Counted from the stretch's first letter, positions 10,970-15,682 are shown. The stretch is DNA of 23,865 bases from Candidatus Micrarchaeota archaeon (GCA_043813365.1 JBDRLB010000070.1:1-23865); one strand, 5' to 3'. The notes: generated from the sequence alone by a model not told the origin. Numbers and translations: made by a program.

Positions 10970-11098
10970 GCCTCCGTAGCTCAGTAGCAGAGCGTCTGCC
11001 TTGTACGTCCTTTTCTTTGGCGCGGTGCCATCGCACCTTTCTTCCAAGAAAGGGGCAAGGCGAGCAGAAGGTCGCGAGTGCAATCCTCGCCGGGGGCT
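10970..11098 (+). tRNA. tRNA-Thr(UGU) with a 57-nt intron at 37/38 (11006-11062)
   Basis: Acceptor GCCTCCG/CGGGGGC plus discriminator T; D arm GCTC/GAGC; anticodon stem TCTGC/GCAGA with loop CT-TGT-A|A; T arm GCGAG-TGCAATC-CTCGC; relaxed bulge-helix-bulge at the junctions. Confidence 0.92.
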
Positions 11099-11108
11099 TA
11101 TTTTGTTT

Positions 11109-11211
11109 TTGGAGGGGGTTTGCTTCCAAGGGTATCGTGAAGCTTGCTTCGCGATGAGTAGCCTAAAAGGCTACGAAAGCGGGGGAACCGGAGGTGCCCC
11201 CTAAGACGCTT
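11109..11211 (+). other. GC-rich four-hairpin structured spacer downstream of the tRNA
   Basis: TTGGAGG/CTTCCAA; ATCGTGAAG-CTTG-CTTCGCGAT; GTAGCCT-AAA-AGGCTAC; GGGGGaACC-GGA-GGTgCCCCC. Confidence 0.6.
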
Positions 11212-11234
11212 GTGCTAAATCCTCGCCGGGGCTT
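11212..11234 (+). repeat. direct repeat of the tRNA-Thr 3' end (att-like)
   Basis: GTGCTAAATCCTCGCCGGGGCTT versus tRNA GTGCAATCCTCGCCGGGGGCTT; 14-nt exact core AATCCTCGCCGGGG (11082-11095 and 11218-11231). Confidence 0.85.
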
Positions 11235-11310
11235 TGGTAAACAATAGCTAATCTTTAATAAACACGATTTTGATAGTATATTTCCGATTTTTCAATAGAG
11301 GTGGGTTTTG

Positions 11311-11646
11311 ATGAACAAGAAAGCAATCAGCATGGTAATGATCCTCCTGGGAGTCGCATTCAGCACGCTTGCGCTGAACCAGCTAAACCAGATGTCAATT
11401 AGCAGCGCGCAATCAGAGCTCGCTAGGCCGGTTGCGGAGGCTCAAATTGCTGCCAATGAGCAGTTCGCTTTGAGTTATGGCCAGACGCAGGATGAAATAG
11501 ACAAGACTTCGAAGGAGGCACGCGACCTCATAGAAAAAACCATTGCCGCAACAAACCAGTCATACCTCCAAACTGCTTTGATAGATGGCATCTTAGGGCT
11601 GGTGCTGCTGTTTGCCGGCTTAATTACATTCCCGAAGGAGCTTTGA
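11311..11646 (+). CDS. small membrane protein with two predicted TM segments
   Basis: Hydrophobic N- and C-terminal segments around a helical polar region; GAGGTGG SD. Confidence 0.75.
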   Translation: MNKKAISMVMILLGVAFSTLALNQLNQMSISSAQSELARPVAEAQIAANEQFALSYGQTQDEIDKTSKEARDLIEKTIAATNQSYLQTALIDGILGLVLLFAGLITFPKEL

Positions 11647-11679
11647 TTTTTCCATTTTCCTTTTTTTGGGGTTTTGTTG

Positions 11680-13277
11680 ATGAGTGAAAACGAGGACAAG
11701 GTATTCGAGGAGATCTACGGCGAGCTTACTGAGAATCCCGACATCACCCCCCAGCAGCTGCTCAAGCTGAAAAACCGGCTCGCAAGCAAATACGGCCAGT
11801 CCCGGACAGTCAAAAACCCCGAAATACTTGGAAGGCTGGAAAAGGAGGGGAAACTAACCCCCGAACTCAGGAAAGCGCTCAAAATAAAGCATATCCGCGC
11901 TCTCTCGGGGATCTCCAACATCGCCATAATGACCGCCCCGCTACCCTGCCCAGGAAGATGCATCTACTGCCCAGGCGGCCCCTTATTCAATTCCCCTAAA
12001 TCGTACACCGGAAAGGAGCCTGCTGCCAGAAGGGCGGAGCAGAATGGGTTCGATTCCTACAGGCAAGTGGAGGCAAGGTTGAGGCAATTCTCATTAATCG
12101 GGCATTCTGCCGACAAGAACGAGCTGATAATTCAAGGCGGCACATTGAACGCCCTTCCCATAACATACCAGACGGATTTCATCAAGGGCGCTTATGATGC
12201 ATTCAACGGGAAAATAAGTGGGAGTTTGGAGGAGGCTATCAAAATAAATGAGACTTCCAAGCACCGCGTTATCGGCTTAACGATTGAAACCCGCCCTGAT
12301 TTTTGCGCGGAAGGCCAGCTTTCCAAACTACTTGAATTCGGCACCACGCGCATCGAGCTGGGTGTCCAATCGCTTGAAGATAAAATACTCCAGAAATCAA
12401 AAAGGGGCCATTCCGTGCAACAGGTTGTTGATGCGACGAGGAGATGCAAGGATTCGCTGCTGAAAATCTGCTATCACATGATGCCGGGGCTGTTTGCAAC
12501 CCCCGAGGAAGACATCGCATACTTCAAGAAGCTCTTTTCCGACCCCTCCTTCCAGCCGGATATGCTCAAAATCTACCCCACACTTGTGATGCCAAATACG
12601 GAACTTTACGAAATGTGGAAAAAAGGCGAATATGTTCCTTACACGTCGGAGGAAGCAGCTGCTGTAATTGCGGAATCTAAAAATTCGTCCCGGAATGGTG
12701 CCGCATAATGCGCGTTAATCGGGACATTCCAGTCAACCTCATTGCGGAAGGCGTGAAGAAGAGCAACTTGCGCGAATTGGTTGTCGAGCAAGCCAAAAAG
12801 AAGGGCATCAAATGCAGGTGCATCCGCTGCAGGGAAATCGGAATAAAGATGCTTAAGGAAAAAATCAAGCCTGATTATGATAATGTGGAGCTGGTGCGCC
12901 GCGAATATGCTGCTTCTGAAGGGAAGGAAATTTTCCTCTCTTTTGAGGACAAAACAAATGATGCGCTCATGGGCTTCATACGTTTGAGGAGGAACTCATC
13001 CCATCAATTCCGGCCAGAGATGGACGATTCCACGATGGGTATCCGCGAGTTGCATGTTTACGGTGAACAATTGCCATTAGGGAAGCACGAAACGGATAAA
13101 TTCGACCCCACCCAGCACGAGGGCTACGGCTCCCAACTATTGAAGGAAGCGGAAAGGATTGCCAAAGGGGAATTCGACGCCAAAAAGCTGTTGATAATCT
13201 CCGGAGTCGGTGTCCGCGAATACTACCGGAAGCGCGGATATGCCCTGGAGGGGGTTTACATGGGGAAGAAATTGTGA
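11680..13277 (+). pseudogene. elp3: Elp3 tRNA U34 carboxymethyltransferase (radical SAM + KAT), split by a 1-nt frameshift at 12679-12683
   Basis: CPGRCIYCPGG, PKSYTGKEPA, IETRPD, ELGVQS, HMMPG, KIYPT in the first frame; RVNRDIP, CRCIRCRE, RELHVYG, QHEGYG, ISGVGVREYY in the second. One extra A restores SKKFVPEWCRIMR and a 532-aa protein. May be a sequencing error rather than a pseudogene. Confidence 0.85.
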
Positions 13278-13670
13278 TTACTTCATTCTCTGAAGCACGT
13301 TAGAAACAAAATGCCTGAACGAGTCCCTATTGTCCTCAAGTGACGACAAGAAAACCCTGCCCCCATTGATGAATACCGTTGTGGGGAAACCCTCTGGCGC
13401 ATACCTTTTCCTCAGCGCTTCATGCTGCAGTGTTGGGTAAACCGCTTTTTTTCCTCCTTCGACTTCCCTTCTTTCATGGGACAAATCGAACCTTGCCACC
13501 TGAATCCCCGCCTCTTCCAGCTTCCCCGCTTCCGCCTCGAAATGGGGCTGCAGTTCCTTGCAGTCGCCGCACCACTTTGCGCCGAATTTCACAACAAGCG
13601 GCCTTCCGGATTTAACCAATTCGGCGAGTTCCTCCGGCGATTTGATTTCAATGATTCCCATTGTGCTCAC
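13278..13670 (-). CDS. thioredoxin-family protein
   Basis: VVKFGAKWCGDC active site and cis-Pro motif GFPT; GTG start overlaps the PIN stop by 4 nt. Confidence 0.85.
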   Translation of the reverse strand: MSTMGIIEIKSPEELAELVKSGRPLVVKFGAKWCGDCKELQPHFEAEAGKLEEAGIQVARFDLSHERREVEGGKKAVYPTLQHEALRKRYAPEGFPTTVFINGGRVFLSSLEDNRDSFRHFVSNVLQRMK

Positions 13671-14086
13671 CTGATAATCTCCATTTCCTTGAATTTCCTG
13701 AAATCCTCATCATATGTCAGTATTTTCTTGATGCCGTTTGCGAAAAGGCAGGTGCAGATCAGCGAATCGGTGAAATCTGCATTAAGCTCCTCGGCCATTA
13801 TCGAAGCTCGCAAAACATACTCTTCCTTCGCTTCTATGATTTTGAAATTTTCGTCAGAAATCAGCTTATCCAGCGTATTGTTGGCTACCTGCCTGCTGAA
13901 TTTCCTTCTCAGGTAGTTAGCGAATTCGGTCAGGATCGGCATTGGTATTGCCATCCTCTCGTGCTTTCCATAGCATTCGGCGAACCGCTGCTTTGCCTGC
14001 CTTACGGTTTTTTTCATTTCAGCTGAAAGCTCGGGATTTTCTTCAGTTACGCGGTATATCAGTGCGTTGGTATCGACTGCTATCAT
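13667..14086 (-). CDS. vapC: PIN-domain toxin (VapC-like)
   Basis: IAVDTNAL, ILTEF, FTDS, LTYDEDF. Confidence 0.88.
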   Translation of the reverse strand: MIAVDTNALIYRVTEENPELSAEMKKTVRQAKQRFAECYGKHERMAIPMPILTEFANYLRRKFSRQVANNTLDKLISDENFKIIEAKEEYVLRASIMAEELNADFTDSLICTCLFANGIKKILTYDEDFRKFKEMEIIR

Positions 14087-14328
14087 TTGTAATTACCCAT
14101 CATCCCGCCCTCTGCAATCAGGTCATCCATGTTCTTCAGGTCGTCTTCGGTCAGCTTAAGACTATCGAAGCATTTTGCGAATGACCCGCGTTTGCGCTGC
14201 CGGAGTATCAGTTTGTCATCTATTCTGATGATGAGCATCTCGCTCCCCAGCCCTTTCCGCAGTTCGGCAGGAATCAACACCCTACCTATCTTGTCCATCC
14301 TTACCTTTGATTTGCCAAATAAATACAT
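14083..14328 (-). CDS. AbrB/MazE-type antitoxin (VapB-like)
   Basis: RMDKIGRVLIPAELRK swapped-hairpin motif; ATGA overlap with the PIN gene. Confidence 0.85.
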   Translation of the reverse strand: MYLFGKSKVRMDKIGRVLIPAELRKGLGSEMLIIRIDDKLILRQRKRGSFAKCFDSLKLTEDDLKNMDDLIAEGGMMGNYK

Positions 14329-14396
14329 AATTTACCACTTTTTGCCAAAATTGGCAATTATTGTTATAAATGGCAAAATTAATAAATATTGGCAAA
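14311..14396. promoter_or_regulatory. array of TTTGCCA/TGGCAA half-sites, probable AbrB operator
   Basis: TTTGCCA 14311, TTTACCA 14331, TTTGCCA 14341, then TGGCAA at 14352, 14371 and 14390, in an AT-rich promoter region. Confidence 0.65.
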
Positions 14397-14450
14397 TGCC
14401 TTCTTTCCAGCGGCGCCACCGCCGCTTTCTTCGGAAGAAAGGGGCAAGGC
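14397..14450 (+). repeat. intergenic homolog of the tRNA-Thr intron
   Basis: 14410-14450 aligns with 11022-11061 at 35 of 41 columns, including an identical 16-mer AAGAAAGGGGCAAGGC. Confidence 0.8.
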
Positions 14451-14452
14451 AA

Positions 14453-15547
14453 TTATAGCCAATACCCCGTCCTTCCGGCTCCGGTTATTTCCGATGAGCC
14501 GATAGCCGTGTACTTCTTATTACCGATGACAACTTCCGCATTGCAGGGATAAGTGTTGTAATCTATATCCGTCTTCAGTATCAGGTTGGCTAGCTTCATC
14601 CCCCTTATGGAATGCACATCGATCTCGTATTTCGGCGTTATTTTCAGCTCTATTTTCCCCTCCTTGCTCTTCACGGAAAGCAGGGGTGTTTTGGGCGATT
14701 CCCATTTTAGCTTCGTTTCGGCGTCTTCAAATACCTCCGCCTCCCCCGTTTCCGGGTCCCAGTTGATCAGCTGGATGAAAATCGGTATCTGGTACTTGCC
14801 GCGCTCGAAGAAGAAATGCATGAAGCTCACGAACTTCTCGATTTTCTGCTCGTCCTCCTGGAAGCAATCCAGTATGGTCCAATGCCACCCCTGCGAAATC
14901 ATCGGCGTGCGCATGTGGATGTTCTCGTTATATGAAAAATTGCTCGCGATGTTCTTCCCAATAAGCTCCTCCGCCTCCCCTAGCTGGAAAAGCGAAATGT
15001 CGCCCTTCCCCTCGATTTCAATGGAGCCCTTCGCGGGCGAAATCATCCAATAGGCAAGGATCTGGTCGAATTCCTTGAAAATGCACTTGAATTTCTTTAT
15101 CTCGTCCGATAGTTTTTCGAATTTATACGTAAGTTTCAGCTCCCCTTCGCTTGCTGGGCCCTTTTTCCGGAATTTCGCGGTCACCTCGTATTCCGAGGGG
15201 CTGCCCTTCCAATCCACCTCCCTCCCTTCCTCCTTGATGGTGAACATCCCGTCGCCAAATTTTGTGGAATCGTTGCAGAATCCTTCCCCGATCCTGTAGG
15301 TTTTGCCCTTGTAGCGCAGCTCGTGGAAGAGATACCGCTGCAGGTCATCATACCCCAATGTGATGTACGCGGATAGGTCCTTATTGGTGACGTTCGCATA
15401 AATCCATCCGCGCTCCTTGGATTTTTTAGTCTCGTTGTAAAGGTGTTCCGGGGAAAACAGCGCATCATACTTGCCCGTCTCCTCAAGCCTCATTTTCGCC
15501 CTTCCGTCGAACGTATGCACCATAACCTGCTTGTTAGTGAGCTTCAT
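14453..15547 (-). CDS. hypothetical beta-rich protein, possibly AttH/CrtC/tocopherol-cyclase-like double barrel
   Basis: Long ORF; GWHW and C-terminal Y..PC...V...K.Y.AIGSSEITG resemble the GWDW and G.GY.ELTG motifs of AttH-like proteins. Family call is weak. Confidence 0.55.
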   Translation of the reverse strand: MKLTNKQVMVHTFDGRAKMRLEETGKYDALFSPEHLYNETKKSKERGWIYANVTNKDLSAYITLGYDDLQRYLFHELRYKGKTYRIGEGFCNDSTKFGDGMFTIKEEGREVDWKGSPSEYEVTAKFRKKGPASEGELKLTYKFEKLSDEIKKFKCIFKEFDQILAYWMISPAKGSIEIEGKGDISLFQLGEAEELIGKNIASNFSYNENIHMRTPMISQGWHWTILDCFQEDEQKIEKFVSFMHFFFERGKYQIPIFIQLINWDPETGEAEVFEDAETKLKWESPKTPLLSVKSKEGKIELKITPKYEIDVHSIRGMKLANLILKTDIDYNTYPCNAEVVIGNKKYTAIGSSEITGAGRTGYWL

Positions 15548-15682
15548 AGTGATCAACAGAAAAGTCAATAAAACCCTTTATTCCCGTTCTACATATAAAC
15601 CCAATAACTTTATTATCCTTGAGAATGGTAATGGTAAACTCGTCAGCCCAAACAGCCGGGATTCCATTTTAAGGTGGGAAAT

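Follow-up and report, generated by a model that had tools for sequence, protein, structure and literature searches.

A dispersed repeat unit found in tRNA introns and outside tRNA genes of Micrarchaeota, a candidate mobile tRNA-intron module

The closest described system to the one reported here is the transposing tRNA introns of Thermoproteales (Fujishima et al. 2010, Mol Biol Evol 27:2233, as given in the review PMC4090602), for which transposition was inferred. According to the passages that deal with them, these introns were gained recently and are spliced at bulge-helix-bulge (BHB) motifs by an endonuclease of broad specificity, and their mechanism of movement is described as unknown (PMC4090602; 10.64898/2026.10.13.758758). 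In Candidatus Micrarchaeum acidiphilum ARMAN-2, tRNA genes are heavily disrupted by many introns, including introns at position 59/60 (Fujishima 2011, PMC3239211), and the epsilon2 EndA is a three-unit endonuclease (Hirata 2012, PMC3488258); both the heavy tRNA disruption and the three-unit endonuclease of Micrarchaeum are already known. How tRNA introns arrive in archaea was called unknown in the 2014 review (PMC4090602), and the corresponding passages of a 2026 preprint on Asgard archaea, in which several arrival routes were tested, report no general route (10.64898/2026.10.13.758758). Here we describe a repeat unit of about 50 nt in a 23,865-nt stretch of DNA (hereafter the window) from a Candidatus Micrarchaeota archaeon (GCA_043813365.1 JBDRLB010000070.1:1-23865). 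One copy lies in the intron of a tRNA-Thr(UGU) gene and another stands free between protein genes 3.4 kb away. We consider the unit to be probably a mobile tRNA-intron module specific to this lineage, which resembles the transposing introns of Thermoproteales but also has free-standing copies. The window's genome (G000; 1.34 Mb, 78 contigs, 88.6% complete) was compared with 5 congeners (G001-G005) and other relatives; all genomes used are metagenome assemblies, and positions given without a contig are those of the whole window.

Like the Thermoproteales introns as the review describes them, the introns that contain this unit appear to have been gained recently, and their splicing would be of the BHB type (PMC4090602). 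Unlike them, the Micrarchaeota units belong to a different phylum with a three-unit endonuclease, and the introns are modular, a 50-nt unit being used in either orientation, singly or as inverted pairs. In addition, introns do not account for 16 of the 33 units in G000, and 10 of these 16 have no tRNA nearby; the unit also has a mirror-repeat (triplex-type) design. As in ARMAN-2, many introns are present, 59/60 introns among them, together with a three-unit endonuclease gene; the main-text account of ARMAN-2, in contrast, gives intron positions and the enzyme without a repeated intron family or free-standing copies (PMC3239211). A search of the literature on Micrarchaeota tRNA introns, archaeal miniature inverted-repeat transposable elements (MITEs), and archaeal triple helices, which covered main-text passages of PMC3239211, yielded nothing on a modular intron-building repeat, its free-standing copies, its polymorphism, or its mirror design.

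The tRNA-Thr(UGU) gene occupies 10970..11098 on the + strand (Rfam RF00005, 50.3 bits), where the Rfam match spans a 59-nt gap in the anticodon loop. Its 5′ exon (10970..11005, +) ends with A37 of the anticodon loop CUUGUA, and its 3′ exon (11063..11098, +), which is also delimited by Rfam, includes the discriminator U. The orthologous gene of G003 (C9:50829-50902) has no intron and reads ...CTGCCTTGTAAGCAGA..., and a DNA contig of sequencing run X2 fuses 11005 directly to 11063, skipping exactly 57 nt. The flanks of the X2 contig differ from the window; its source is therefore a different organism whose exons are the same. The intronless G003 gene and the X2 junction therefore place the intron at 11006..11062 (+), the canonical 37/38 position, and these 57 nt consist of a 7-nt linker (CGTCCTT), the repeat unit, and one G. 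The exons are 96-100% identical to those of tRNA-Thr(CGU) on contig C28 and ca. 90% identical to those of Thr(GGU) on C11, and they are predicted to join into a canonical cloverleaf; we assign the gene to tRNA-Thr(UGU). Default ARAGORN found no tRNA in the window, and 10 of its 21 solutions for virtually spliced candidates were Thr-tgt and 2 were Ala-tgc. The Ala(tgc) call, which arose when introns were allowed, was rejected on the Thr-like exons, the intronless orthologs, and the pair C3-G70, since tRNA-Ala identity depends on G3-U70.

Within this intron, the unit spans 11013..11061 (+; nhmmer 44.2 bits; covariance model R1 68.1 bits), and the free-standing copy spans 14401..14450 (+; R1 67.9 bits). 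R1 was built from A1, an alignment of 26 full-length units, and both window copies match it at 68 bits with an E value of about 1e-18. An earlier note on this DNA had matched intron positions 11022-11061 to intergenic positions 14410-14450 at 35 of 41 columns; this count was reproduced, and the match extends to 41 of 50 columns between 11013-11061 and 14401-14450. The best local score of the 57-nt intron in the rest of the window is 53, a value reached by none of 200 dinucleotide shuffles (mean 24.4, sd 2.5, maximum 34). Both copies also contain the GCGG...GCCA...CGC motif (GCGGTGCCATCGC / GCGGCGCCACCGC) and the CTTTCTT...AAGAAAG palindrome that the note had pointed out, as well as TGCCTT...CAAGGC, with TGCCTT at 10997-11002 in the tRNA and at 14397-14402 in the copy, where its last TT already belongs to the unit.

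The consensus of the unit, ca. 50 nt long, is TTCTTT(NN)-N-GCGG-N-GCCAY-CGC-(N)-CTTTCTT-loop-AAGAAAG-G(G)GCAAGGC. In the intron, a 5′ pyrimidine tract termed Y1, TTCTTTGG (11013..11020, +), which the tests described below identify as a parallel mirror of the purine strand, is followed by the motif GCGG-N-GCCAY-CGC (11022..11034, +), a short hairpin or linker of invariant A1 columns. Next come hairpin 2, CCTTTCTT / loop CC / AAGAAAGG (11036..11053, +), marked by covariation, and the terminal GGCAAGGC (11054..11061, +), recognized by sequence and fold. CAAG(G) of this terminus is complementary to CUUG of the exon (nt 32-35), and the two may form the central helix of a relaxed BHB motif. In the intergenic copy, Y1 is CCTTCTTTCC (14399..14408, +), which matches GGAAGAAAGG (14433-14442) in parallel at 10/10 positions; it precedes a folded hairpin GCGGCG-CCAC-CGCCGC (14410..14425, +) and hairpin 2, CTTTCTT / loop CGG / AAGAAAG(G) (14425..14442, +), which is seen in A1, in the fold, and by covariation. 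In the pyrimidine/purine hairpin, pairing is found in 94.2% of the A1 cells, against 83.7% after shuffling and 54-65% with the partner strand displaced, and its covariation of 0.434 (0.226 in shuffles) was reached in 0 of 500 shuffles. The GCG/CGC stem is invariant, and covariation therefore gives no evidence on it.

The units fall into at least five subfamilies, the intron copy belonging to A (GG type) and the intergenic copy to B (CC type). This difference had been read in the earlier note as a double compensatory swap in an outer stem, TTCTTTGG..CCAAGAA in the intron and TTCTTTCC..GGAAGAA in the copy. The letters are present, each pair of segments can form 4 Watson-Crick pairs plus a wobble, and the minimum-energy folds of both copies use part of this pairing. 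However, the proposed stem joins unit positions 7-8 to the first two bases of a hairpin loop that differs in nearly every copy. The complementary dinucleotide occurs in 1 of 7 GG-type and 1 of 5 CC-type units of A1, namely the two window copies; the GG-type unit C40:37881 has the CGG loop of the CC-type window copy, and the antiparallel (Watson-Crick) rule is obeyed by none of 77 informative units. It is thus extremely unlikely that the two copies share an outer stem kept by compensatory change, and the alignment points to GG versus CC as a subfamily difference rather than Watson-Crick covariation. The note's proposal of a structured repeat dispersed in and outside tRNA introns holds, with 33 loci; what does not hold is that this pair is special, the two copies being members of different subfamilies.

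Several variants of the unit were also observed. Three left-arm units (C26:21167, C31:1420, and C76:18476) have GACAC for GCCAC in the conserved loop and CAAGTC for CAAGGC at the end, and RNAalifold pairs A1 columns 16 and 56, which change from C-G to A-U in 3 units with one exception; a long-range contact or shared descent is possible. In four units (G000 C9:5005-5075, C42:33947-34020, C50:12271-12345, and C75:17976-18045), the loop of hairpin 2 contains a two-hairpin insert of ca. 55 nt (AACCG-AAAGAGC..GCTCTTT-GCGGCCCCGAAGAC..GTCTTCG-CGGAG), once in the opposite orientation. This insert was not found outside units in the G000 genome; because it always lies inside a unit, it may be an independent mobile family (a nested insertion) or, equally, a long form of the unit.

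In G000, 33 distinct loci of the unit were located with short-word BLAST and iterated nhmmer, and R1 detected 32 loci at E<=1.3e-5 plus the locus on C9. On 25 unit loci, Rfam gave 7 tRNA matches and no family other than tRNA. Since Rfam is insensitive to disrupted genes, the context of each copy was determined by reading the flanks, by ARAGORN on two successive sets of virtual intron deletions (286,548 and 206,898), and by a test for a T-stem and an acceptor complement. Seventeen units form introns, or parts of introns, at position 37/38 or 59/60 of 12 tRNA genes, where they occur in either orientation and often in inverted pairs; six are trailers, lying at most ca. 100 nt downstream of tRNA genes; and ten, the window copy among them, have no tRNA evidence nearby. 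In tRNA-Thr(UGU) and tRNA-Arg(CCU), a single unit forms the 3′ end of an anticodon-loop intron, and tRNA-Leu(UAA) has two inverted units in the anticodon loop. The T-loop introns are in tRNA-Asn(GUU), Arg(GCG), Val(GAC), Arg(UCU), Met(CAU), and four untyped tRNAs. Related intron sequences in different isoacceptors and at different positions, as found across these 12 genes, are a mark of transposing introns of the Thermoproteales type. On the whole genome, ARAGORN reported 23 tRNA genes and Infernal 19; these numbers are low because many G000 genes carry long T-loop introns, and a census of tRNA genes in this lineage would thus be badly incomplete.

In the proposed scheme, the unit of ca. 50 nt would be the building block of a family of protein-spliced, BHB-type tRNA introns. 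In T-loop introns, two inverted units would flank a palindrome and pair through their ends, and in tRNA-Thr(UGU) a single unit would pair through its CAAGG end with the CUUG of the exon. The arms of the T-loop introns accordingly enclose a central palindrome (for example, TTTGATTTGCAAATCAAA) between the two strands of an intron-side helix, GCCTTGC/GCAAGGC, and the exon TTCG pairs with CGAA, CGGA, or TGAA after the unit, leaving 3-nt bulges. A good motif results, TTCG/CGAA bordered by the bulges AAA and TAT, and splicing at 59/60 would restore TTCGAAT. A 388-aa EndA open reading frame (ORF) of G000 has two PF01974 matches and matches PDB 4fz2_A over its full length (residues 12-388; E=2e-128). 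We take 4fz2 to be the ARMAN-2 three-unit splicing endonuclease, and G000 is thus predicted to encode an enzyme of this kind. Such a three-unit endonuclease, of the type shown in Ca. Micrarchaeum to cut relaxed motifs, would excise the unit introns.

Further copies outside the window and empty or differently filled orthologous sites, both of which bear on the earlier suggestion of a dispersed repeat, were found among the relatives. Each of the 5 congeners has 21-39 R1 matches, and genomes of the other families of the order have 0 to 55. In an evenly sampled set of 151 genomes of the phylum, 10 had matches at E<=1e-6, all in the order of the window genome; none of the 132 sampled genomes outside the order had a match at this threshold. 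As far as sampled, the unit appears to be confined to one order.

The tRNA-Thr(UGU) site has four states in six genomes: an A-type unit in forward orientation (G000 and G005), a reversed B-type unit with the tail ...GCAAGCA or ...CAAGGCA (G001 and G004), an unrelated intron of ca. 106 nt (G002), and no intron (G003). Position 59/60 of tRNA-Asn has six states in the same six genomes. It holds a B unit, a palindrome, and a D unit in G000; a single reversed B unit plus other sequence in G001; another repeat family in G002; a single reversed D unit in G003; and a C unit, a palindrome, and an A unit in G004; it is intronless in G005. Gain or loss at orthologous tRNA genes of close relatives, a further mark of transposing introns, is thus seen for both Thr and Asn. 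The units appear to behave as mobile DNA, with orthologous tRNA sites holding different units, different orientations, unrelated introns, or none. At G002, it was separately observed that the tRNA-Thr(UGU) gene (L039, G002:C3:39800-40160) is inverted relative to conserved flanking genes and that a separate 5′ fragment of it (GCCTCCGTAGCTCAGTAGCAGC...) lies ca. 100 nt upstream.

Sites outside tRNA genes vary as well. A 371-aa ORF without a Pfam family (14453..15568, -) has its stop codon 2 nt from the GCAAGGC end of the window copy, and the copy is 73 nt from the start of an antitoxin gene; this tight spacing leaves no room for a tRNA. Between copy and antitoxin gene lies the antitoxin promoter region (14329-14396) with TTGGCAAA repeats, which are kept in congeners without the unit. 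At the orthologous site, the unit was found in none of the 5 congeners. Two of them, G001 and G005, have clean empty sites, in which both flanks (ATATTGGCAAA promoter repeats and the ORF end) are kept around unrelated spacers of 35-45 nt; G003 and G004 have 450-630 nt of other DNA there, and G002 lacks the toxin-antitoxin pair (vapBC). Thus, 14401-14450 appears to be a solo unit outside tRNA genes, seen only in G000 among the six congeners. None of the DNA contigs of the sequencing runs joins across the copy, and one 285-nt contig of run X1 just covers it. A second solo unit, C44:20839, overlaps a stop codon in G000 and was not found behind the orthologous stop in any of the 5 congeners; in G001 and G002 a different repeat occupies this site (L065/L066), and the same repeat is the tRNA-Asn intron of G002.

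This second small repeat family (CCAGGG..CTAG..CCCCTAC..CCTCTACCC) thus occurs as a T-loop tRNA intron (L080, G002 tRNA-Asn) and behind a protein-gene stop, and it has at least 4 copies in G000 (C72:12625-12678, C71:1680-1725, C53:11224-11276, and C57:2484-2529). The polymorphism at the Thr and Asn genes, the solo sites, and the second family together suggest that the genus draws intron sequences from dispersed repeat families and that turnover at its tRNA sites is rapid.

Gene conversion between tRNA genes as the only means of spread, with the copies outside being decayed tRNA genes or co-copied pieces, would fit the location of 23 of the 33 units in tRNA genes or within ca. 100 nt of them. 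Ectopic conversion could be guided by the T-loop and T-stem flanks, which are conserved from one tRNA to another, and two solo units (C74 and C7:28151) are flanked by T-loop-like ATTCAAAAC. However, the window copy sits between a protein-gene stop and a conserved promoter, no tRNA remnant is seen at its site, or at that of C44, in congeners that share the flanks, and at the C44 stop the other repeat family is found, which also supplies the G002 tRNA-Asn intron. We regard gene conversion as the sole route as very unlikely.

In six of the ten free-standing units, the GCAAGGC end is 0-7 nt from the stop codon of the neighboring ORF, and the order is always gene, stop, GCCTTGCC; the ORFs come from a crude ORF finder, and the figure is a raw tally. 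The distance is exactly 2 nt for the window copy, C74, C7:28151, and C50. Solo units would thus typically abut a stop codon, which could reflect a target preference, tolerance of insertion there, or a function at transcript ends.

Two of the six trailers are followed by a degenerate second copy of the T-loop-to-3′-end segment of the tRNA. Including relatives, five cases show an intact tRNA, a spacer of 14-55 nt, a unit, and such a second segment: G000 C42:10200-10390 (unit C42:10314) and C2:28603-28790 (unit C2:28716), and in relatives L035 (G007:C1), L031 (G009:C123), and L037 (G029:C122). The second segments are identical or degenerate, often with a 1-nt insertion in TTCGAAT. The arrangement looks like a pair of left and right attachment sites (attL/attR), or like an intermediate of gain or loss of a T-loop intron. 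In the model for Caldiarchaeum, intron gain through the integration of mobile elements was proposed in the part of that study considered here (Sugahara 2012, PMC3293823). By analogy, the units could be leftovers of integrative elements (plasmids or viruses) for which the 3′ part of a tRNA gene is the recombination site. The introns and the solo copies would then be debris of integration and excision, and the five cases parallel that model (PMC3293823). This origin is nevertheless quite unlikely: only ca. 70-110 nt lie between the repeated tRNA segments, no integrase is nearby and the genome has a sole tyrosine-recombinase-type gene, the window copy has no tRNA-like flank, and no duplication is seen at two-arm T-loop introns, anticodon-loop introns, or solo copies behind protein genes.

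For the mobile module that we favor, the site polymorphisms suggest movement at the DNA level by some enzyme, either of a repeat into tRNA genes or of an intron out of a tRNA. Several observations weigh against it. No mobilizing enzyme linked to the units was found in the 88.6%-complete G000, and no RVT_1 (reverse transcriptase domain) was found there. The linked HUH transposase or REP-associated tyrosine transposase (RAYT; REP, repetitive extragenic palindrome) that the earlier note had in mind was likewise not found: the sole Y1 transposase gene of G000, of the IS200 type (Y1_Tnp, PF01797; C8:179-523), is on a contig without a unit match, and the single tyrosine-recombinase-type gene has been mentioned. 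No larger element bounded by units was seen in G000. Target-site duplications are not clear, and none that is exact was recognized by eye at introns or solo copies, T-loop-like sequence being present on both sides of T-loop introns without exact duplication. Solo units, unlike a classical MITE, have no second arm. The flanks in congeners are only 70-77% identical, so that insertion and replacement of the spacer are not distinguishable, and every genome compared is, as stated, assembled from metagenomes. Free-standing status comes from a negative tRNA search, and many disrupted genes of this genome escape the standard finders; the window copy is excepted, as it has no room for a tRNA. The splicing of unit introns is itself predicted from sequence, and the minimum-energy fold of pre-tRNA-Thr is not a BHB motif; a helix of 4 bp, UUGU/GCGA, with a single bulged nucleotide forms instead. 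Manual pairing yields no more than a relaxed motif, in which the central helix is CUUG/CAAG flanked by 4-nt bulges, or CUUG/AAGG containing a mismatch and flanked by 3-nt bulges.

As generally described, MITEs and REP/REPIN elements are, like the units, short structured repeats without coding capacity that occur in many intergenic copies, fall into subfamilies, and show nested insertions and presence/absence polymorphism. Two-arm unit introns also have, like MITEs, long inverted arms of ca. 50 nt, often of different subfamilies. In contrast to these elements, the units are without an established target-site duplication, a linked transposase, or a RAYT; solo units lack an inverted partner; and their main habitat is tRNA genes, from which the copy would be removed at the RNA level.

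The internal design of the unit was assessed with 117 distinct units from 10 genomes, of which 107 were parsed, orthologs in congeners being counted separately. CCAAAGAA is the reverse complement of the 5′ end of the unit. The 5′ tract is a parallel mirror of the hairpin's purine strand, T aligning with A, and C or G with G. In 101 of 107 units, as many T follow the C of the 5′ tract as A follow the G of the purine strand; for the loop-side runs, which vary more, the lengths agree in 73 of 103. Within subfamilies, loop-side equality was found in 50 of 75 units (17.9 expected by permutation) and 16 of 20 (4.7 expected), values reached in 0 of 5000 permutations, figures that overstate independence because related copies were counted separately. 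In 77 units the purine strand is asymmetric and thus informative: both runs conform to the parallel (Hoogsteen-type) rule in 52 of them, and the antiparallel rule is followed in none. Such a mirror relation would be the signature of a pyrimidine-purine-pyrimidine triple helix. We tentatively propose that the unit is an archaeal triple-helix element, in which the major groove of the unit's pyrimidine/purine hairpin would accommodate the U/T-rich 5′ tract, with the GCGG-N-GCCAY-CGC hairpin as connector.

The order of the elements, a U-rich tract, a stem-loop, a U-rich strand, and an A-rich strand, with one C.G-C triple, is that of the triplexes of MALAT1, MEN-beta, and the element for nuclear expression (ENE), including the double-domain ENEs (dENEs) of plant and fungal transposons, as known generally and in part from a review of triple helices (PMC13541005). 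The unit also shares with this group a position next to a tRNA or tRNA-like structure and an association with mobile elements. Unlike the described members, it is archaeal, would form only 6-10 triples, and has its A-rich strand internally rather than at a 3′ end or in a poly(A) tail, its triplex being a predicted one; the passages of that 2026 review covered here contain no archaeal example (PMC13541005).

If such a helix forms, the unit could mainly be a selected structural module that folds into a triplex (U.A-U RNA or H-DNA), its parasitic spread being secondary, a view compatible with mobility that we consider somewhat unlikely. A function of this module, such as transcription termination, the stabilization of an excised intron or an RNA end, or the induction of recombination, would explain the locations of the units, and is likewise rather doubtful. 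The mirror rule, the parallel-only fit, the MALAT1-type order (PMC13541005), and the single orientation of the six stop-adjacent solo units favor it. On the other side, triplex formation is only predicted and the supporting counts include related copies, congener orthologs among them; A-type units place GG over G-C pairs, a combination outside the canonical triples of the pyrimidine motif; protonation is required for the C+.G-C triple; at the stop-adjacent sites the mRNA would contain the reverse complement, which as RNA would need the less stable purine-motif triplex; and within introns the unit occurs in both orientations. A triple helix (RNA or H-DNA), if real, would explain why one family serves as tRNA-intron arm, tRNA trailer, and stop-adjacent solo element. 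It might stabilize excised or circular introns or RNA ends, or stall polymerases and provoke the recombination that spreads the unit, and the GG/CC difference would be third-strand variation instead of a Watson-Crick swap. It would also be the first such element in archaea, as far as the literature was searched, and would link triplexes to intron mobility.

For the mobile-module reading, this lineage offers one sequence family that is both intron material and a dispersed repeat outside tRNA genes. Close genomes show the same tRNA site empty, filled, filled in reverse, or filled by another family, and the second repeat family behaves alike. Gain, replacement, and loss can therefore be counted, and the question of the enzyme can be tested by comparative genomics and with the crystallized endonuclease.

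The toxin-antitoxin neighbors of the intergenic copy are as the earlier note described. A vapB-like antitoxin gene of the MraZ/MazE fold (14083..14328, -) adjoins a gene for a PIN-domain (VapC-like) toxin (13667..14086, -). The TTGCCAAA / TTGGCAAA motifs upstream of the antitoxin gene (14329-14396) are partly palindromic, their congener version is ATAAATATTGGCAAAT, and they are probably the operator of this pair. Between the tRNA gene and the toxin gene, an Elp3-like gene (radical SAM and GNAT domains; 11674-13277) appears as two overlapping ORFs split at 12708. A DNA contig of run X4 has an additional A after 12678 in this region; therefore, the split may be a one-base homopolymer error or a strain-specific frameshift.

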